Shown in pieces: positions 3,153 through 64,000 of a stretch of DNA of 64,000 nucleotides. Each line of letters starts with the position of its first letter. The stretch's first letter is position 1. Source of the DNA: Escherichia virus TH38; the sequence record MT446410.1; one strand, written 5' to 3'. The translations under genes and the position numbers were made by a program. The notes beneath the pieces were generated by a model, which saw only the letters and a program-made list of their open reading frames with translations, searched no databases and had not been told where the DNA came from.

Positions 3153-3891
3153 CGTTCAATACCCCATCAATACCTATGGGTGGCTAAAGAAGGCCGTGGC
3201 CCTCTGGGCAGATAGGGACGATGACGAATTTGTTAATCAAATTCCAAACTTTATTAACTTTGCAGAGAAAGAGATTTATCGTAACTTACGTATTCCTCCT
3301 CTGGAAAAAGAAGTGTATTTAGATATTAAAGATGGAGTAGCTTACATTCCTCCTGATTACTTAGAAGCTCAATGGATGATGAGAGCCAAAGATGGCACAA
3401 TCTTCCAAGTAACCTCTCCTGAAGAGATTAGCTATCGTAGACAGCATGGAACAATTAACCCATCTCACTGGAATAACCAACCTGTCAACTTTGCTCGTTT
3501 CGGTAGTCGTTTCATTTTCTACCCTAGCATCGAAGCAGATACTCCGTACTACCCTGATGATGGAAGCCCTTTGATTCCAGCAGAAAACTCAGTGATTCTT
3601 AGCTATTATGCAGACCCACCGGAATTCCATGAAGATACAGATACTAGTACTATTCTTACTATAGCACCAGAACTTCTTCTGTACTTCACCCTACGTCATG
3701 CTTGTCTCTTTGTTCAAGATGATAATGGTGTTCAGAAATGGTCAGCATTAGGAAAAGCTATCCTTGATGAAATGGTAGAACAGAATAAGAAACAAGAGTA
3801 CTCAGGTTCACCTATCGCAATTCCGAATAACATGACTCGACTTCAGAGCAGCTTGCCTGATATTTATGGTATTCGTACTTCTCGTGTATAA
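3142..3891 (+). CDS. virion structural protein (possible adaptor/tail tubular protein)
   Basis: Start moved to ATG 3142 with RBS ggaggt; position in structural operon; no recognisable catalytic motif. Confidence 0.45.
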   Translation: MLPDVQYPINTYGWLKKAVALWADRDDDEFVNQIPNFINFAEKEIYRNLRIPPLEKEVYLDIKDGVAYIPPDYLEAQWMMRAKDGTIFQVTSPEEISYRRQHGTINPSHWNNQPVNFARFGSRFIFYPSIEADTPYYPDDGSPLIPAENSVILSYYADPPEFHEDTDTSTILTIAPELLLYFTLRHACLFVQDDNGVQKWSALGKAILDEMVEQNKKQEYSGSPIAIPNNMTRLQSSLPDIYGIRTSRV

Positions 3892-3900
3892 GGAGATAAT

Positions 3901-6681
3901 ATGATCGTTTATAATAACCAAGCACCTGATGCAGTGAATAACGTTGGGCAGTTTGGTGCTACTGAAGGCTCTATTGGAGCTTATAAGCAAGCCGCAGAAT
4001 ATGCAGCTGACTCCAAATATTGGGCACTGTTAGCAGAGTCTAAGTTTGGTACAATTGATGACCTGATCGCTGAAGTAGAACGTTTGTATCAGCAAGGTGT
4101 TCTGATGAAGCAGGATATCGAAGATCTTAAGCAGGACTTTAAAGATCAAGATGCTCGTCTGATGAGTTTGATTGCTCAAACTAACGCAGCGGTATCAGAT
4201 GCGAATAATGCTGTAGCTCTAATTAATCAGAAACTTATTGAAGTCCAGAACCAGCTTGACGTTCTGTTAGGAATGTCCGTTGATGTAACCACACTTCCTC
4301 CGGGAACTCCGGCTACTGGCTCTTTTAATCCGAACACTGGTGTAATCTCTCTAGGTATCCCAGAAGGTGATCCCGGAAAGGATGGTTCTGTTAAGGATTT
4401 GGATACAGCACCTACCGGTGTTCCAGAGTTAGGTGACTTGGGTTTCTATGTTGACAAAGATGATAATACTGTCCACAAGACTACTCTAGAGAACATTGCC
4501 AACTTAATCCCGTCTATTCGTTCTGTTTCTATTAACGGTGGTCCAGCTCTTGATGGAGAGGTTGCCTTAACAATCAACAAAGAGACGGTAGGTTTAGGGA
4601 ATGTTCTGAACGTTGCTCAGTATAGCCGTCAAGAGATTAACGACAAGTTTGACAAAACTACCAAGACATACCAATCAAAAGCAGAAGCTGATGCTGACGC
4701 TCAGTATCGTCAAGTTGGTGAGAAAGTCTTAGTCTGGGAAGCTACTAAGTATGAGTTCTACACTGTTGCTGCTAACAAAACATTAACTCCTGTTAAAACT
4801 GAAGGTAGGATCCTTACTGTTAACTCCCGTTCTCCAGATTCCAGTGGTAACATTGACGTTACTATTCCAACAGGAAACCCTTCTCTGTATCTTGGTGAGA
4901 TGGTGATGTTCCCTTATGACCCAACGAAGAATATCTCCTATCCGGGTGTTCTTCCAGCTGACGGTCGTCTAGTATCTAAAGAATCTGCTTCAGACTTAGG
5001 TCCATCTCTTGTCAGTGGACAACTTCCTGTTGTTTCTGAAACTGAATGGCAATCTGGTGCTCGTCAATATTTCTCTTGGGGTAAGCTGGCTGATGGTATA
5101 ACTGATGCAGATTCTACTAACTTTATAAGTATCCGACTTCCTGACTGGACTGGTGGTGAGGCTATCAGGTCTCCTGATTCAGATAAAGATGCTAATTACA
5201 AAGGTCGTGTTCAATCTCAGATTCCTTACATTGTAACCGTAAACGGAAAAGCCCCTGATGACGCTAATGGTAATGTAGTCCTCACAGCTGCTAATGTTGG
5301 GGCAGCATCTTCAGGCGCTAACTCTGATATCACATCCCTTAGTGGATTGACTACCCCTCTTTCTGTTGCTCAGGGTGGTACAGGTGTTACCGATATTGGC
5401 TCGCTTCGTAGGTCGGCGTTGGTCCAGGGGGTTTTATGTAATGATCAGGCTGATCCTCAATCTTATAACAGTTATAGATCTCCTAACGGGGAGTATGCTT
5501 TCAAAGTGGATAACTCGGGACTTGTTGCTTCTATTAATGCAGGGACGGAAGAAGTTGTACCTTTTGCTATAGAATCAGGTGGTACGGGAGCAACCACATT
5601 AAACGATGCTCGAATTAGCTTAAATTTGGAGAGATTTTTACAGCCTAGCAATGAAACCATAGTTATGGCTCCTAGTAAATCTTCATATTTAACAATTTCA
5701 GACACCTCTTGGGGGGCTTATAGTTCTGCTGACTCAGCATGGAGAGCTTTAGGGGTAGGACAAGGTGGTACAGGAGCGACCTCTGAGGCTGCTGCTCGTG
5801 TCAATCTGAAGGTGGATAAGCTTGTTCAAAGTTCAACAGACACAAAACTGCTGGATGGTTCTGGAGAACATACCTTCTTTATTACAGATGCAGATTGGGG
5901 GTATTTCAATAACTCTGATTCTTCTAGAATAGCCTTGCCAGTAATAAGTGGTGGTACTGGAGGGAAAACACCAGCTGAAGGTTCTGAAAAATTAGGAGCC
6001 ATGCATTGTCAGTATGGTCAATCAACTTTTTATGGCAGTGAAGATTTACCAACAGGTATTGGGTTCTATAGTCAAGACGTTTCCCCTTTCCCCGGAGGTA
6101 ATGGAGCGCCTTATTCTTATGCAGAGATTATGACTATATCAGAAGGAGGTCGCGGTGGTAACTGGTCTCAGATTGGTTTCTCTACTATTACCAACCAAGC
6201 TCCTCGGTATCGTCAAAGAACCAATGACCCAGCTTTGATTACTAACTGGAGAGATTTCTTAGTACGGGACTTGAACACCACTGTAGATGTTAATGGTTTT
6301 GTTAAAATTGCATCCCCTATAGTCAAACTAAAATCTGACGGGTCTTCTGAAGCTAATGACCAAGCCCAAGGAGTGACAACCGAAAGATTAGATGTTGGTG
6401 TCTATAAAATCTCAGGAGTCTTAGGGTTTAACTCAGATGCCTCTTGGGGTGGTAATGACGGTGGTTTTTCTATTCCTCAGAACTCTAACGGATTACCTCT
6501 TCTTTGGGTTGATTATGAAGTTGATGAAGAAGGTGATATTACTCTGAAAACTTACCATCGAACTCACGAGGGAGTTCCTTCTTTTGCAAGTAATGTAATA
6601 GAAGGTGTGGTGGATGGTGAACCAATTGATATCCCTTCTGGAAGATGGATTGACCTTCGTGTTGAGATGCCTTCTAAATGA
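3901..6681 (+). CDS. tail fibre protein
   Basis: 926 aa; N-terminal coiled coil; repeated GGTG(A/V)T fibre-repeat motifs (QGGTGVTD, SGGTGATT, GQGGTGATS, SGGTGGKT). Confidence 0.7.
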   Translation: MIVYNNQAPDAVNNVGQFGATEGSIGAYKQAAEYAADSKYWALLAESKFGTIDDLIAEVERLYQQGVLMKQDIEDLKQDFKDQDARLMSLIAQTNAAVSDANNAVALINQKLIEVQNQLDVLLGMSVDVTTLPPGTPATGSFNPNTGVISLGIPEGDPGKDGSVKDLDTAPTGVPELGDLGFYVDKDDNTVHKTTLENIANLIPSIRSVSINGGPALDGEVALTINKETVGLGNVLNVAQYSRQEINDKFDKTTKTYQSKAEADADAQYRQVGEKVLVWEATKYEFYTVAANKTLTPVKTEGRILTVNSRSPDSSGNIDVTIPTGNPSLYLGEMVMFPYDPTKNISYPGVLPADGRLVSKESASDLGPSLVSGQLPVVSETEWQSGARQYFSWGKLADGITDADSTNFISIRLPDWTGGEAIRSPDSDKDANYKGRVQSQIPYIVTVNGKAPDDANGNVVLTAANVGAASSGANSDITSLSGLTTPLSVAQGGTGVTDIGSLRRSALVQGVLCNDQADPQSYNSYRSPNGEYAFKVDNSGLVASINAGTEEVVPFAIESGGTGATTLNDARISLNLERFLQPSNETIVMAPSKSSYLTISDTSWGAYSSADSAWRALGVGQGGTGATSEAAARVNLKVDKLVQSSTDTKLLDGSGEHTFFITDADWGYFNNSDSSRIALPVISGGTGGKTPAEGSEKLGAMHCQYGQSTFYGSEDLPTGIGFYSQDVSPFPGGNGAPYSYAEIMTISEGGRGGNWSQIGFSTITNQAPRYRQRTNDPALITNWRDFLVRDLNTTVDVNGFVKIASPIVKLKSDGSSEANDQAQGVTTERLDVGVYKISGVLGFNSDASWGGNDGGFSIPQNSNGLPLLWVDYEVDEEGDITLKTYHRTHEGVPSFASNVIEGVVDGEPIDIPSGRWIDLRVEMPSK

Positions 6682-37794: not shown

Positions 37795-37976
37795 TTCACA
37801 ACCTTAAATTTGAATGTTGTTGGGTGATAATAATGCAATCTATTGATAGTGTGTTTTGTTTCAAGATATATCCTGCAAGAGTGGCACATGACATGGGTCA
37901 GACCAGTTACAGGATTAGGTTTAAAGTTGGCGACAGTCTTCTCTTTATTACAGAAGCTACAGACTTTCTTTTCCAT
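37791..37976 (-). CDS. small zinc-ribbon protein
   Basis: Start at internal ATG (MEKKVCSFC...); CSFC ... CHSC. Confidence 0.35.
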   Translation of the reverse strand: MEKKVCSFCNKEKTVANFKPNPVTGLTHVMCHSCRIYLETKHTINRLHYYHPTTFKFKVVK

Positions 37977-38190
37977 CTTTTCTCCAGTGGTCAACGAATT
38001 GCTGAAACACTTTACGATCAAATGTGAAATTACGAGCAATTCCGCATTCTCTAAAAGTGGCAGGCATATAATCTACATCACCTTCAGATGTATGACCATA
38101 GACTTGAATAAGCTTCTTAATCTTATCTTTCTCTCTTCGAGGAAGCATTCTAAATGCCTCCTGAATATCTGTAATATGTTTTATCTTCAT
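37957..38190 (-). CDS. hypothetical protein
   Basis: 77-aa ORF. Confidence 0.35.
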   Translation of the reverse strand: MKIKHITDIQEAFRMLPRREKDKIKKLIQVYGHTSEGDVDYMPATFRECGIARNFTFDRKVFQQFVDHWRKDGKESL

Positions 38191-38202
38191 AAGGAATTCC
38201 TG

Positions 38203-38337
38203 CTAATCCTCTGAGTTGTGGGAACAGCAATATTCACATACTCCGCAACATGGACAAATTTCTACACTTGGGTCATATGCATCATCAACTGTCATCCCAC
38301 ACTTGGTGCAGAACACATCGTCGTCTTCTTCCAACAT
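38203..38337 (-). CDS. small Cys-rich protein (44 aa)
   Basis: By-eye ORF MLEEDDDVFCTKCGMTVDD...CPCCGVCEYCC; start overlaps upstream stop (TAATG). Confidence 0.35.
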   Translation of the reverse strand: MLEEDDDVFCTKCGMTVDDAYDPSVEICPCCGVCEYCCSHNSED

Positions 38338-38585
38338 TAATTCTCCAAACAAGAATCATTCATCAGTAGCTCCAAACTATCAAGTGTGTAGTAATAACCA
38401 AAGAATGGGGCTGTTGACTTGGAAACCTTTTTATCAAAAAGAGATTGAGAAAGATTTATTTCTACTCCAGCATCTTCAAGCTGTTGTTTTGTGGGGTATG
38501 TAATGAAAGAGCAAAGCACTTCTGTGTACTCCCCTCTGTCTGTCTCTTCAACACGACTCAGAATCCAAATACTTTTACTAGCCAT
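38337..38585 (-). CDS. hypothetical protein
   Basis: 82-aa ORF. Confidence 0.35.
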   Translation of the reverse strand: MASKSIWILSRVEETDRGEYTEVLCSFITYPTKQQLEDAGVEINLSQSLFDKKVSKSTAPFFGYYYTLDSLELLMNDSCLEN

Positions 38586-59031: not shown

Positions 59032-59205
59032 TTAACAAGATTGATCACAAGGCTGATCTCCACATGTTTTACAGATCACTGGTGAGTAACTACAGGCAGG
59101 ATATACTGACACCCCATCAAATGTCTCACACCCACAATCAGGGCATGTACCGTTGGATTCCATGTCATCATCGTCATCTACTTCACCGCCACCAAAACAA
59201 CTCAT
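59032..59205 (-). CDS. small Cys-rich zinc-binding protein (57 aa)
   Basis: By-eye ORF with strong RBS aaggag; MSCFGGGEVDDDDD...CPDCGCE...CKTCGDQPCDQSC. Confidence 0.4.
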   Translation of the reverse strand: MSCFGGGEVDDDDDMESNGTCPDCGCETFDGVSVYPACSYSPVICKTCGDQPCDQSC

Positions 59206-59214
59206 ACAGGCTCC

Positions 59215-59505
59215 TTAGTAAACTAAACCTACAACCTTTGCGTTGGATTGAGGAGTGACTTCAGCGGCTGGACGAAATCCGTCAACAACGCCGTTGCAGA
59301 TGTTGATGCAGGTAATATACCCTCCAACCTCTTGGTCGCCCTTAATCCAAAAACCATTATCATGTCTAAAAGCACTCCCACTAAGAAGTGTAGACAAAGG
59401 AACTACTGGTAATGTTTGCTTAGCTTCAAATAACATAATAACCTCAATTATCGTAGCATGTATCCCAATACATGTAGTTAACATATGTTCTCGGTTTGAG
59501 TCCAT
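59215..59505 (-). CDS. hypothetical protein
   Basis: 96-aa ORF; overlaps next ORF so true start may be internal. Confidence 0.3.
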   Translation of the reverse strand: MDSNREHMLTTCIGIHATIIEVIMLFEAKQTLPVVPLSTLLSGSAFRHDNGFWIKGDQEVGGYITCINICNGVVDGFRPAAEVTPQSNAKVVGLVY

Positions 59506-59698: not shown

Positions 59699-59862
59699 CT
59701 CAATGTCTTAGGGTTACTGATGAAAGATCTCCTACTGAGTACTCAAGAACCTCTTTCACAGGGTATTCATTCCCTGAAGGTTCTTCGATGTAGACGATAG
59801 CATCTGGACCACAAGTAACAGATAAGTTTTCAAGAGTTCTAATGAGTTCTTCAATAGTCACA

Positions 59863-60162
59863 TTACCACTCCTTACCGGTTGTTGTTACAGAACCGCCAC
59901 ACCACAACGCTGTATCGATCACAACATTGTCTGGCGTAGACTTCTCTTCGTTGATAGAAGGGTTAGCATTAGAGCAGGTTGCCCCGTTGTAGCGCATATC
60001 AATATCACCACTAGGAATCTTGTTTCCTGAATGCCAGCGAGATACACAAATACCATCCACTGCTACTGCACACCACCCATCAGGGCGGCTCTGTACGCAG
60101 CCTGTAAGGGCCACACAGACAAGGAAGATACAGATTAAGGATATTACACCACCCCAACTCAT
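59863..60162 (-). CDS. Cys-rich lipoprotein
   Basis: Signal peptide with lipobox LTGC (ISLICIFLVCVALTGC); 99 aa. Confidence 0.5.
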   Translation of the reverse strand: MSWGGVISLICIFLVCVALTGCVQSRPDGWCAVAVDGICVSRWHSGNKIPSGDIDMRYNGATCSNANPSINEEKSTPDNVVIDTALWCGGSVTTTGKEW

Positions 60163-60182
60163 AATTAACTCCTATTAGATTT

Positions 60183-60260
60183 GGTGGACTATCTGGAATC
60201 GAACCAGAAGCTCACTAAGAAAGTAATTCCCACTGTTATAAAAGCACTTGCCTCAACAGG
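60183..60260 (-). tRNA. tRNA-like element (T-arm plus acceptor 3' strand plus CCA); full cloverleaf not resolved by eye
   Basis: - strand TCTGG-TTCGATT-CCAGA T-arm and ...CCACCA 3' end; no matching 5' acceptor strand found by hand. Confidence 0.25.
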
Positions 60261-60303
60261 GATACACTAACTCTGGTGCCGCACCCATACTAGCCCTAAA
60301 TGT

Positions 60304-60380
60304 GGTGCGCCCTACAGGACTCGAACCTGTAACCAATAGCTTAGAAGTAAAGTTTCTATCCTTGTAATGAAGTTTTCATT
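60304..60380 (-). tRNA. tRNA-like element / possible degenerate tRNA-Arg copy
   Basis: - strand ACAGG-TTCGAGT-CCTGT T-arm, acceptor AGGGCGC-A-CCA, anticodon-loop-like CTTCTAA identical to neighbouring tRNA-Arg; 5' half does not fold. Confidence 0.25.
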
Positions 60381-60381
60381 G

Positions 60382-60456
60382 TGGCGTTCCCTCGTGGAAT
60401 CGAACCACGAATAAGAGCTTAGAAGGCTCCAGTTATATCCGTTTAACTAAGGGAAC
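60382..60456 (-). tRNA. tRNA-Arg (anticodon UCU)
   Basis: Hand-folded cloverleaf: acceptor GTTCCCT/AGGGAAC, D-stem GTTA/TAAC, anticodon stem GGAGC/GCTCT with loop CTTCTAA, T-arm CGTGG-TTCGATT-CCACG, encoded CCA. Confidence 0.7.
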
Positions 60457-60462
60457 ATTACA

Positions 60463-60813
60463 ATGAAAACTTGCACAACCTGTCACACCCAAAAGGAAGA
60501 TTCAGATTTTTACAAGAAAGGAGATCGACTTCATTCTATGTGTAAACAATGCTTCAATGCCTACTGTATTGAACGTTGGAGACAAAGAAAGACTCAAGCG
60601 GTTAAAGATTTCGGAGGTAAGTGTCATGACTGCAACCAAGAGTACCCAGATGCAGTCTTTGATTTCCACCACCTAGATCCCTCTGAAAAAGATTTTGATT
60701 GGAATAAACTTAGACTCCGATCTATTGACTCTATCAGAGAAGAGTTAAGCAAGTGCGTAATGCTCTGTGCTAACTGCCACCGTATTCGTCACATTGATTG
60801 CTCTGTCCATTGA
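60463..60813 (+). CDS. HNH endonuclease
   Basis: CTTCH...CKQC zinc finger and FDFHHLDP...CANCHRIRH HNH motif; only + strand gene within - strand block, next to tRNAs. Confidence 0.7.
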   Translation: MKTCTTCHTQKEDSDFYKKGDRLHSMCKQCFNAYCIERWRQRKTQAVKDFGGKCHDCNQEYPDAVFDFHHLDPSEKDFDWNKLRLRSIDSIREELSKCVMLCANCHRIRHIDCSVH

Positions 60814-60833
60814 GCTAAGGGTGCTAGATTTGT

Positions 60834-61043
60834 TTAACTAAAGATACGAATGGCTACATCGTGACCAATATGACCGGGAACTTTATGCTGTTCTATTTTC
60901 AAACAGTGTTTACAGATACGAGATACACGAGATTCTTTTCTCTCGACCGGAGTGTCTTTAGCGTGGGTGATATGTAGGTTCTCAGTGATCACCCACTCAT
61001 GTTTGCACTCAGAATCTTTGGGCTTTTTCTTACGAAAGAACAT
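60834..61043 (-). CDS. small zinc-ribbon protein, tandem family member
   Basis: Start at internal ATG (MFFRKKKPKDSECKHEW...ICKHC). Confidence 0.4.
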   Translation of the reverse strand: MFFRKKKPKDSECKHEWVITENLHITHAKDTPVERKESRVSRICKHCLKIEQHKVPGHIGHDVAIRIFS

Positions 61044-61051
61044 AACACCCC

Positions 61052-61216
61052 TTAGATCAGATCTGTTTTCTTGTGCAGACCACACACTTTACAGCGAGAG
61101 TAGATACGCAACCCTTGTCGCTCTCTGTCAGTAAGTTTATTTGTGATCGTCAGTTCATAAGTATGAAGATCTTCCCACTCATGGAAATGAAATAGACGTT
61201 TGAACCGTTTAATCAT
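61052..61216 (-). CDS. small zinc-ribbon protein, tandem family member (54 aa)
   Basis: By-eye ORF MIKRFKRLFHFHEW...CKVCG; RBS aagga. Confidence 0.4.
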   Translation of the reverse strand: MIKRFKRLFHFHEWEDLHTYELTITNKLTDRERQGLRIYSRCKVCGLHKKTDLI

Positions 61217-61225
61217 AATGATTCC

Positions 61226-61387
61226 TTAGATTACATCACGATGACTAACATCACCACACACCTTACACTGGATAATGTAACGTGTGCCCTTGTCATTGTT
61301 CCCATCTGAATCTGTATAGACCAGAGGACGGGTGTTAATAATCTTCCAATCATGACAATGGAAGACACGCTTTAGCCACTTGAACAT
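61226..61387 (-). CDS. small zinc-ribbon protein, tandem family member (53 aa)
   Basis: Start at internal ATG (MFKWLKRVFHCHDW...CKVCG). Confidence 0.4.
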   Translation of the reverse strand: MFKWLKRVFHCHDWKIINTRPLVYTDSDGNNDKGTRYIIQCKVCGDVSHRDVI

Positions 61388-61394
61388 ATTAACC

Positions 61395-61646
61395 TCAAGC
61401 ACAAGCAGGGAGAGTGATGATTTTATACTGACCTTCGAACTCTCCAAACAAACCCAAGAATGTAGGACTGTAAGTACCAGTACAAACAAACTCATCAAAC
61501 AGTGCGTTATAACTAGGCTTGATCTTCCAAGCCCATACATAGCCCATCTTGTCAATTGCAATGTAACGAGTGTTCAGAGGAACAGTCATCATTACACCGT
61601 CAACTTCGATCACTTTAGTGATTGGTGCAGCTTGAAAGTTTTTCAT
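61395..61646 (-). CDS. hypothetical protein
   Basis: 83-aa ORF. Confidence 0.4.
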   Translation of the reverse strand: MKNFQAAPITKVIEVDGVMMTVPLNTRYIAIDKMGYVWAWKIKPSYNALFDEFVCTGTYSPTFLGLFGEFEGQYKIITLPACA

Positions 61647-61819
61647 ACTTTACCTTTAATAAAAATATCATTGCCACAGACACAGCATGAACGAACAACA
61701 GTAGCGCCACGCTGAACGATACGAACCTCTTCTTTAACCAGATTAACACGAGCACCGCAGCAAGGGGAGTTGACATAAGAGTAACCAGCTTGCGTATGTT
61801 TGATTGTTTGCTTAGACAT
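61643..61819 (-). CDS. small zinc-ribbon protein (58 aa)
   Basis: By-eye ORF ...SPCCGARV...SCCVCGND; stop overlaps next ATG. Confidence 0.35.
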   Translation of the reverse strand: MSKQTIKHTQAGYSYVNSPCCGARVNLVKEEVRIVQRGATVVRSCCVCGNDIFIKGKV

Positions 61820-61873
61820 TTTAGCTTCCTCTTGTTAGTTTAAGTAAGAGTTGTCCCTTAATTAAAACAACAA

Positions 61874-61893
61874 AGGCCGCCCGAAGGCAGCCT
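61874..61893 (-). terminator. rho-independent terminator (- strand)
   Basis: AGGCTGCC-TTCG-GGCGGCCT then T-rich tract on - strand. Confidence 0.6.
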
Positions 61894-61897
61894 CTCT

Positions 61898-62149
61898 TTA
61901 TTGACTCACACCACGAATCAGATGATTCTGTAGCGTACCGTCTTCTGCATTATACAGGAATGCGAACATCAACTCCTTAGCCACATCTCTTGAGCAATTA
62001 AGACACTTAGAGATTTGAGTTAGTTGCATGTTACGTTCAGTGTGTTCCATCAAGGCAATGCGAATGATCTCTCGCATACCTATTACATGAACTGTTTTAA
62101 CCGGCATAGGTCCAATTACCTTGCTTGTTACGAATGGCTGACATTGCAT
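61898..62149 (-). CDS. hypothetical protein
   Basis: 83-aa ORF. Confidence 0.4.
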   Translation of the reverse strand: MQCQPFVTSKVIGPMPVKTVHVIGMREIIRIALMEHTERNMQLTQISKCLNCSRDVAKELMFAFLYNAEDGTLQNHLIRGVSQ

Positions 62150-62595
62150 GAATCCAGAAGCCTTCCAGTTTCAGAGCACCGTTAGCTACTGCATCCATAC
62201 GTTCAGGGCGGTTCATACGTTTGGTTGATACTTTCATACCTATCTCTCTTTGTTAGTGGAGGCATTATTGCCAGTTGATATAAGGGATAGCCCTAGTCAG
62301 TAGACTAATCCTGACCGCGTACTCATTGCCGACCCTCTCTGCCTAAGAGTTCAGGTTCTAGAGCTATCTCTTATTCCAACTGGTGAAGACTCCCTACCCC
62401 TAGGAAGTCTCCTGAATCCCAAACTAATACGTACCCCTACATATCAGAAAGTCTTTCGAAAATTAACAGGTTTTAGTCTAGCACCGGATGTTCGAGCAAG
62501 CTCTCCCTAGCGGTGTGGCATATGCCTGAATTAATAAGTTAATGAGGAACACCCTCACATAGCCCTCTGATAAACACAAGGGCTATAAGTCGGTG

Positions 62596-62814
62596 TTACT
62601 TTTGGGATAAACACAGATCGGGACGTGGCATAACAGTGGTTGATAGACCGAAGACTTCAACATAACCACTGCTCAAGTTAGCAGCCTTACACAAACCATC
62701 AGGGGTTTTATCTTCTAGCATCAGCCAGAAACGTTTATCGTAAGAGAAAACATCACCACCTTTAACATCTTCTGCATTTGCATATTTAGGATAATCAACT
62801 ACTTTAATTTCCAT
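62596..62814 (-). CDS. small protein, GDVF-family paralog
   Basis: VKGGDVFSY motif. Confidence 0.4.
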   Translation of the reverse strand: MEIKVVDYPKYANAEDVKGGDVFSYDKRFWLMLEDKTPDGLCKAANLSSGYVEVFGLSTTVMPRPDLCLSQK

Positions 62815-62824
62815 CTACTTACCT

Positions 62825-63043
62825 TTATTGATTGATGGTTAGATGAACTAACTTATTAACATGGGCGAAGTTAGGAAGGATTTGCATCTCGTTGTTAAGG
62901 ATATTAAAACAACGAACCCCGCCCTCTACAGCATAGGCAGATTTCTGAAACAAGCTACCTCTCCACACAAATACATCATGTGTTTCAAGAGATCGCAACT
63001 GAACAGCTTCATCATCAATCTTTTTCTCAATGTTCATATTCAC
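62825..63043 (-). CDS. small protein, GDVF-family paralog
   Basis: LETHDVFVW motif. Confidence 0.4.
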   Translation of the reverse strand: MNMNIEKKIDDEAVQLRSLETHDVFVWRGSLFQKSAYAVEGGVRCFNILNNEMQILPNFAHVNKLVHLTINQ

Positions 63044-63294
63044 TTCCGATTAGTAATAACAACGTCATGAAGAAGAACAACCTTGCTTTTCGAGCTAAGT
63101 TTAAGGACTTGCTTATTTGTCAGACTAAGGACGACACAACCCCCATCAGAAGGCTTGGTCTCTTCAATCTGTGAGGTAAATAGCTGAACAACCATGTAGA
63201 AATCTGCTCGTGTTTCCCTGATTTGGAATACATCCCCAAGTTTGAGATCACCAACACACAAAGACGGTTCATTTACTTCAAGATTAATCTTCAT
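63040..63294 (-). CDS. small protein, GDVF-family paralog
   Basis: LKLGDVFQI motif. Confidence 0.4.
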   Translation of the reverse strand: MKINLEVNEPSLCVGDLKLGDVFQIRETRADFYMVVQLFTSQIEETKPSDGGCVVLSLTNKQVLKLSSKSKVVLLHDVVITNRK

Positions 63295-63544
63295 CTTTAG
63301 CCTCTATGTTGGTTATATGGAGATCACTGCGTACTTGGCAAACTTCATCCCGTTTAAAAGGCATGAGCTTTCCAGTTACCACATCAACACAGTTGACATA
63401 ATTGTCTGCGTACAATGTGTCGGTTCTGATGTAAAGGGATTCTTTACGCTCAAACAGAACCCCCGGCTTCATGTTATTTAATCGAAGCATTGTACGATCA
63501 GATTTAATATTAACTTTCACTGTTAATCTCCTGCTGCTTAGCAA
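63284..63544 (-). CDS. small protein, GDVF-family-like paralog
   Basis: MKPGVLFER motif (divergent). Confidence 0.35.
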   Translation of the reverse strand: MLSSRRLTVKVNIKSDRTMLRLNNMKPGVLFERKESLYIRTDTLYADNYVNCVDVVTGKLMPFKRDEVCQVRSDLHITNIEAKDED

Positions 63545-63806
63545 TAGCTACTCGCAAGTCTTCATTAGCACGAGCAAGTCGTAATACTTCATGGTTGAGG
63601 TTCTGAAGACGCTCATTTCTGTCTTCAACTTGCATAATAAGATCATTAAGTGTTACTTTAACTTTCTCATTATACATCTCATCCACTCGGACTAGAGATT
63701 TATACATTCTCTCCCAGCTTGCTGCTTTGTTTCTGAGAACAATAAACCCTATAACGCTGATAGTTAAACAGCTTACAAAAAGGAATTTATATACCTCTAA
63801 AGTCAT
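63510..63806 (-). CDS. small membrane-anchored coiled-coil protein
   Basis: N-terminal TM (FLFVSCLTISVIGFIVL) followed by charged helix. Confidence 0.4.
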   Translation of the reverse strand: MTLEVYKFLFVSCLTISVIGFIVLRNKAASWERMYKSLVRVDEMYNEKVKVTLNDLIMQVEDRNERLQNLNHEVLRLARANEDLRVAIAKQQEINSES

Positions 63807-64000
63807 ATTATTTACCCTTTATCAGAGATTAAAAGTAATATTATTTAAGTAAGTTATATTTAGTAAACTTATTTTCTAAGAAATTTTCAAAGGGTCTATA
63901 TACAGAGCATTACCCATAGTCCCAGAATACTACCATCTTTTTCAATAAATTTACTAAGTGGTTGGTTTATAAAGGAATTTAGTTTGTCAAATCTGGCACT

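Follow-up and report, generated by a model that had tools for sequence, protein, structure and literature searches.

A tandem array of small genes for predicted zinc-ribbon proteins in a kuravirus-type coliphage

What are the three very short genes that lie side by side in the rightmost gene cluster of Escherichia virus TH38, do their products belong to one family, and what might a phage do with several of them in a row? The window, i.e. the whole stretch of DNA analysed here, comprises 64,000 nucleotides (sequence record MT446410.1) and is that of a Kuravirus-type (phiEco32-like) coliphage. The original prediction placed three genes, here called A, B and C, on the minus strand and described them as a tandem array of zinc-ribbon proteins; the genes are found where it placed them and with the translations it gave (Table 1). 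Gene A reads MFKWLKRVFHCHDW...CKVCG, gene B reads MIKRFKRLFHFHEW...CKVCG and gene C reads MFFRKKKPKDSECKHEW...CKHC. The pattern [HC]xHxW-(15-50)-CxxC occurs exactly three times in the six frames of the 64-kb window, each time in one of these adjacent genes, against a mean of 0.01 and a maximum of 1 in 200 shuffles. The region 60400-62200 is 94-96% identical to that of the Escherichia and Shigella phages MN05, SGF2 and EK5 and of about 90 other records of phiEco32-like podoviruses, which here comprise Kuravirus and Suseptimavirus of the subfamily Gordonclarkvirinae.

Table 1. Array genes, their signals and neighbours, and other Cys-rich ORFs of the window
Feature	Position	Strand	Description
Gene A	61226-61387	-	53 aa; HxH...CxxC predicted zinc-ribbon protein; array slot 1
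Gene B	61052-61216	-	54 aa; paralogue of A; array slot 2
Gene C	60834-61043	-	69 aa; CxH...CxxC, conserved C-terminal extension; array slot 3
RBS of A, GAGG	61393-61396	-	overlaps stop codon of upstream gene; read from sequence
RBS of B, AAGGA	61223-61227	-	overlaps TAA stop of A; read from sequence
RBS of C, AAGGGG	61048-61053	-	overlaps TAA stop of B; read from sequence
83-aa gene	61395-61646	-	phrog_1972; between 58-aa gene and A; counterpart phi32_108
58-aa Cys-rich gene	61643-61819	-	CC...CCxC; phrog_18461, E 7e-44; outside array
Terminator-like hairpin with T-run	61872-61895	-	between gene 61898-62149 and 58-aa gene
HNH homing-type endonuclease	60463-60813	+	phrog_2255, E 3e-31; between C and tRNA-Arg
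tRNA-Arg(UCU)	60382-60456	-	ARAGORN; directly downstream of array
CPxCG...CxxCG ORF	59032-59205	-	phrog_13157, E 4e-31; size and position as phi32_103, MN05_00094
64-aa ORF	59064-59258	+	antisense to CPxCG...CxxCG ORF; presumably spurious
Cys-rich ORF	38203-38337	-	phrog_16989, E 4.5e-16; annotated as SU10 gp062
Same ORF, longer reading	38203-38352	-	44-49 aa
Next ORF	37957-38190	-	same frame as preceding ORF

Coding evidence and genomic setting

The genes of the array are separated by gaps of only 9 nt (A-B) and 8 nt (B-C), and these short distances, together with the overlap of each ribosome-binding site with the preceding stop codon, are compatible with translational coupling of A, B and C. 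None of the three is a new discovery: about 90 GenBank phage records already list them as hypothetical proteins. All three carry this label in MN05 (MN05_00100-00102) and EcoN5 (gp108-110), with MN05_00102 and EcoN5 gp110 as the counterparts of A and MN05_00101 as that of B; other orthologues so annotated are found in phiEco32 (gp107), SU10 and NJ01. In the deposited genomes of SU7 (locus L016, 1501-1662), ECBP2 (locus L013, 1501-1644) and YW01 (67235-67393), array members are intact and unannotated, and the ECBP2 orthologue of C is annotated from an internal Met, as a protein of 52 aa instead of 69.

Genes that are very short and without known function, in an array of unstable copy number and with an HNH gene inserted beside them in the window, might be ORFs that arose by chance, duplicates in decay, or sequences carried along by the HNH or tRNA genes. 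Selection and conservation argue so strongly against a non-functional or passenger origin that it is effectively excluded. For orthologues from 14 Gordonclarkvirinae loci, pooled pN/pS is 0.10 for A (8 sequences), 0.33 for B (8 sequences), 0.11 for C (11 sequences) and 0.31 for the other alleles of slot 1 (5 sequences). These sets contain many synonymous differences (dozens), and ratios of 0.10-0.33 show that selection at the protein level has been purifying. About 90 phage records have undisrupted reading frames, and the ligands are nearly invariant in 138 distant clusters of relatives, as described below; the threefold occurrence of the motif is likewise far above chance. As far as sequence data can tell, A, B and C are real coding genes, as originally predicted.

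A dependence of the array on its neighbours can also be rejected. The HNH gene, whose neighbours all lie on the other strand, is missing from the C/tRNA site in MN05, EcoN5 and IME267, and the array exists without it in these phages and in EK010 and Bas86. In Ptacy1532/1479 an HNH gene is present at the C/tRNA junction, and in O18-011 it is there in the other orientation, so the junction looks like an insertion hotspot for mobile homing endonucleases. The tRNA-Arg occupies the same position downstream of the array in the Gordonclarkvirinae relatives. Relatives outside this subfamily have no adjacent tRNA; a single one of their loci has a tRNA-Lys, at a distance of about 2 kb.

Genes A, B and C sit inside a long, leftward-transcribed block of small genes. 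In phiEco32, SU10 and YF01, the leftward small-gene block forms the early class transcribed by the host sigma-70 RNA polymerase; the functions of its genes are unknown, and a role in host takeover is considered likely (PMC8948821; PMC4281155; PMC9965538). The early block of SU10 comprises CDS 69-125 (PMC4281155), and the early class of phiEco32 includes the block that is syntenic with the array (PMC8948821). The position of the array corresponds to phi32_107 and SU10_0105, both of which lie inside the published early blocks, and in phiEco32-like phages the transcripts of this rightmost, leftward-transcribed cluster come first. These correspondences give good support to early expression of A, B and C. 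The terminator-like hairpin inside the early cluster is strong and has a 10-bp stem, a TTCG loop and a T-run; no sigma-70-like promoter was found after it.

Putative ligands, predicted fold and kinship of the products

With 37% identity to each other (BLASTP E 3e-11), and with matches to phrog_8294 over positions 1-56 of its 56 profile positions (A with E 3e-25, B with E 4.6e-16), A and B are clear paralogues. The family to which they belong is much wider. An exhaustive profile search over 1.84 billion cluster representatives, with a cut-off of E <= 1e-3, yields at least 138 clusters, mostly metagenomic, whose members almost all have 47-60 aa. In a MAFFT alignment of 134 sequences (numbering of A), position 10 is His in 116 and Cys in 13, position 12 is His in 131 and Cys in 2, and the Cys pair on which the original prediction relied is conserved, with C41 in 133 and C44 in all 134. 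Trp14 (122), Gly34 (118), Gly45 (128) and Asp51 (92) are the other conserved positions. The four putative metal ligands, [H/C]-x-H...C-x-x-C, are thus nearly invariant, and a metal ligand would be expected to show just this exchange of His and Cys at one position while the other three do not change. The predicted binding of zinc by proteins of the A/B type is well supported by this pattern. In the C family, 8/8 sequences have the first-knuckle His and the two Cys of the second knuckle without exception; the Cys of the first knuckle is also present in 8/8, shifted by one position in F1M1E (CxxH).

The AlphaFold2 model of gene A (pLDDT 88.4) has a helix at residues 3-8 and strands at residues 14-25, 31-41 and 47-52. 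The predicted fold is a helix with a three-stranded antiparallel sheet, in which a hairpin lies between the two knuckles, and it is of the zinc-ribbon type. For A and B, the ligands and this model give good support to the zinc-ribbon assignment made in the original prediction; for C the assignment is plausible.

Column entropy in the family is low at the ligands and at Trp14, Gly34 and Gly45, and it rises to 3.3-3.9 bits in the distal half of the hairpin (residues 18-33), the stretch in which A, B and the remaining array alleles also diverge most from one another. Members of the family are typically basic, with a median pI of 9.26, a net charge of +4 and a pI above 8 in 89% of its members. One relative of 182 aa (P0086; metagenome contig SRR12266079_669186, locus L005, 2917-3465) is a fusion in which Pro-rich linkers connect three copies of the HxH/CxH...CxxC domain; it lies in a series of overlapping small ORFs, none with a Pfam hit, and a tRNA-Lys is found about 2 kb upstream. 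Basic charge, variable hairpin and triple fusion all fit a Zn-stabilised 'finger', that is, a binding module with a variable tip. Two other long matches, P0101 and P0112, are not informative as fusions, their similarity being restricted to the surroundings of one CxxCG knuckle, and P0156 and P0160, which fall in the cluster of A, are unrelated membrane proteins and clustering artefacts.

Searches of general collections assign none of these proteins to a described family. A, B and C have no Pfam hit above the gathering threshold and no NCBIfam hit at E <= 1, and among 119 relatives any one Pfam family is matched by at most 3 at E <= 0.01. Families such as Ogr_Delta, Lar_restr_allev, the DUF1660-type small prophage Zn proteins and the CPxCG zinc fingers are covered by this negative result. 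The best match in a PDB sequence search has E 0.2, with no covering family, and the weak matches found there are all zinc ribbons (aIF2-beta, eS26 and uS14). Searches for homologues by word index retrieve only 4, 5 and 2 near-identical proteins for A, B and C, respectively, none of which has a functional name. The A/B family is an uncharacterised one, without a Pfam or NCBIfam model, of a well-known fold class and with an unusual HxH knuckle.

The position of C is less clear. It matches phrog_13426 (E 1.3e-36) and not phrog_8294. The shared motifs of the original prediction hold for C only in part, since the N-terminal M.K..KR.F is common to A and B, and C shares with them just the CxHxW and CKxC knuckles. 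The C-terminal extension of C, in which E51, V55, G57, I59, A64 and I67 are invariant in 8 sequences, is lacking in A and B, and the phylogenetic range of C differs in that it includes Vequintavirinae. The hhalign probability for C against the A/B family is only 10%, and a search of the window with an HMM of the C family misses both A and B (E 1.9 for B). These features would be expected if C were unrelated to A and B, so that the array would be a pair with a neighbour and the CxHxW...CxxC pattern convergent. We regard this as a serious possibility, though one that falls clearly short of even.

Several comparisons speak for kinship. An A/B-family HMM built from 132 distant relatives, with A and B left out, was run against the 1032 stop-to-stop ORFs of the window; it ranks A first (E 7e-26), B second (E 2e-18) and C third (E 8e-4), with the next ORF at E 0.2. 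The weak match to C recurs in every relative tested and is fainter for the orthologues of C in Vequintavirinae. By BLASTP, C matches B with E 1e-3 and A with E 9e-3. The hhalign alignment of C with the A/B family (E 0.003) extends over 40 columns with both knuckles in register, against 6-13 columns and probabilities below 1% for the controls P2 Ogr and E. coli NrdR. Members of the A/B family with Cys as the first ligand, such as those with 'SCKHEY' in Acinetobacter phage ME3 and 'SCDHEW' in P0118, resemble the 'ECKHEW' of C; they give the best matches to the C-family profile and bridge both families. A Foldseek search of BFVD with the model of A finds a 78-aa protein of Cronobacter phage CR3 (TM 0.66), similar in length to the C-family member of that phage. 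The ligands of C are arranged as in A and B, and its fold is probably the same. Its common ancestry with them is likely, though the sequence evidence is weak and does not establish it.

The original prediction also pointed to a fourth Cys-rich gene, of 58 aa, and to two isolated Cys-rich micro-ORFs. The 58-aa gene is conserved, with the same size and position as phi32_110 and MN05_00105, but it is unrelated to A and B, its score with the A/B-family HMM (E 0.2) not being significant. The two micro-ORFs are likewise conserved and are annotated in relatives; neither is matched by this HMM. All three represent separate Cys-rich families outside the array. The micro-ORF that belongs to phrog_16989 is in the same frame as the next ORF, with one TAA and 12 nt between them, and in its longer reading it matches only positions 2-38 of the 122-position profile. 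That family is labelled 'membrane protein', yet the ORF has no hydrophobic segment. The RefSeq entry of SU10 has two separate genes at the counterpart of 37957-38352, the second of which is labelled 'anti-restriction nuclease', and the arrangement may reflect a split gene or simply loose annotation.

Array mosaic and distribution

Among the 14 Gordonclarkvirinae genomes compared, the array has one to three members, which are combined in mix-and-match fashion. Slot 1, the first array gene and the place of A in the window, has at least four alleles: A, a short A' of 48 aa, the phiEco32-gp107 type and the SU10 type. The A-B-C arrangement of the window is also present in MN05, EcoN5 and IME267, A'-B-C in Bas86 and ECBP2, and phiEco32-type-B-C in EK010. 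Two-member arrays are A-C (NJ01, O18-011), SU10-type-C (XT73) and B-C (SU7), and phiEco32, SU10 and Ptacy1532 have a single member. Kuravirus and Suseptimavirus both include phages with the A type and phages with the phiEco32 type, so cassettes have been exchanged between the genera. By tblastn, 90/90 Gordonclarkvirinae records carry at least one A/B-type gene, and the 140 matching places in 107 records imply that some records carry two; C is found at >= 80% identity in 47 records.

In cultured phages the A/B family is essentially confined to Gordonclarkvirinae. Elsewhere, isolated members are found in Acinetobacter phage ME3, in Synechococcus phages from fresh water and in Pseudomonas phages (ventosus, UAVern and Bruynoghevirus TL). 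The C family is shared between Gordonclarkvirinae and Vequintavirinae myoviruses, the latter having one copy. The loci outside Gordonclarkvirinae (eight IMG/VR loci and those of cultured phages) have single copies in unrelated contexts, among them RusA/replication genes in temperate-looking contigs and the small-ORF blocks of large phages, with GC contents from 38 to 60%. Since members elsewhere are single, tandem multiplication is a feature of Gordonclarkvirinae. No conserved neighbour gives a clue to function. The contigs of P0015, P0017, P0022 and P0026 are too short to show gene context, and an exact-sequence lookup with the window's variant of B found no contig.

The member in Pseudomonas phage TL is unannotated (locus L004, 3426-3665; HG518155, about 3703-3942; HMM E 4e-12). 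Its sequence, '...GCFFGVHDYKII...LQCKVCGDVKRK', overlaps the 3' end of the annotated gp08 in another frame, and its first ligand is apparently a Cys five residues before the His. The first 9 kb of its relative LUZ24, which were checked in view of the published LUZ24 early-ORFan screens, contain no homologue. In IMG/VR UViG_3300042914_003164 (locus L039, 4974-5075) a member that looks like a pseudogene ends at a stop codon behind the first strand ('...YGHVHEWEIIKTGRLP*').

Possible function and comparison with known zinc proteins

The observations on which a functional reading can be built are the paralogy, conservation, purifying selection and copy-number mosaicism of the genes and their predicted fold. 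Since their products come from an early cluster transcribed by host RNA polymerase, they most likely bind and modulate host macromolecules. Our preferred reading, which we hold tentatively and at a little less than even confidence, is that A, B and probably C are early, Zn-stabilised binding modules that target host macromolecules in the service of takeover or counter-defence. The target and the direction of the effect are speculative. In each of these tiny basic proteins, one Zn2+ would be held by the [His/Cys]-x-His and Cys-x-x-Cys knuckles and would clamp a long beta-hairpin against the third strand and the short N-terminal helix, which gives the zinc-ribbon fold. The zinc site, helix and C-terminal strand would provide a constant frame, while the distal hairpin (about residues 18-33), hypervariable across the family and between paralogues, would set the target of the single-domain module. 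The array would have been born by duplication and reshuffled by recombination, with the result that related phages carry one to three different versions, and it would supply several specificities.

The basic character of the family also fits the main alternative, a role as sequence-specific nucleic-acid-binding regulators comparable to P2 Ogr, Mu Com or the NrdR ribbon, which would tune transcription or translation through phage or host DNA or RNA and would not inhibit host proteins. The best PDB structural match of the A model is the DNA-binding zinc ribbon of NrdR, the natural three-domain fusion resembles tandem zinc-finger readers of nucleic acids, and a variable hairpin could read different sequences. 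Sigma-70-like sites are rarer than expected in 59800-64000 (2 observed against 9.9 +/- 3.1 expected), so that regulation is not obviously local. We nevertheless consider such a role rather unlikely. Profile similarity is absent, with hhalign probabilities of 0.6% for P2 Ogr and 0.9% for NrdR, Pfam searches give no hit to a DNA-binding zinc family, and a look for operator-like sites revealed no repeated ones. Copy numbers between 1 and 3 in phages whose genomes are otherwise almost the same are also unusual for core regulators.

The reading as binding modules can be extended to the whole family. In this doubtful extension, HxH/CxxC mini zinc ribbons would form a widespread, unrecognised family of counter-defence or takeover 'fingers', in which the hypervariable hairpin picks the host defence or enzyme to be blocked and the Gordonclarkvirinae array is a cassette arsenal that possibly contributes to the resistance of these phages to restriction-modification (RM) systems, for which no explanation is known. 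If A, B and C do bind host or defence targets, they would be natural scaffolds of small size (about 50 aa) in which the specificity loop can be exchanged, and they might help to explain why kuraviruses, phages employed in phage-therapy work, have such broad RM resistance and host range. For annotation, the at least 138 clusters lacking a Pfam or NCBIfam model, with their unusual His-x-His first knuckle, are of value even without a known function. The array is otherwise an ordinary accessory gene family in one more uncharacterised early block, and its immediate significance is modest; this would rise substantially only if a specific target, for example a defence system, were shown. The kuravirus literature calls the array genes hypothetical, and no experimental work was found on any member of PHROG 8294 or PHROG 13426, nor any paper that mentions either.

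Compared with what is catalogued, A and B are members of PHROG 8294 and C of PHROG 13426, both of which lack a functional or structural description. Compared with known folds, A resembles the zinc ribbons of the NrdR N-terminal domain and the aIF2-beta C-terminal domain, in which two knuckles also flank a beta-hairpin and a third strand is present; further points of likeness are the CxxCG second knuckle and the basic/aromatic strand before it. Phages are known to encode small zinc proteins in which about 50-70 residues provide four Cys/His ligands, namely P2 Ogr / P4 Delta, Mu Com and Rac Lar, and these act by binding RNAP, RNA or restriction enzymes. A, B and C are like them in size and in having four putative Cys/His ligands, whereas the ligand spacing and the HxH knuckle of A and B differ, and neither A, B and C nor the 119 relatives have a hit to the Pfam families of Ogr/Delta, Com or Lar. 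A precedent for a counter-defence role is Enki, encoded by Vibrio autolykivirus 1.080.O, a predicted zinc ribbon of 52 aa for which neutralisation of AbiH and of a retron has been shown by experiment (bioRxiv 10.1101/2024.06.14.598830). Enki is a phage accessory protein of the same size class and the same predicted fold class as A and B. Likened to them by description and not by sequence, it is a precedent for the function class only and lends the counter-defence reading circumstantial support.
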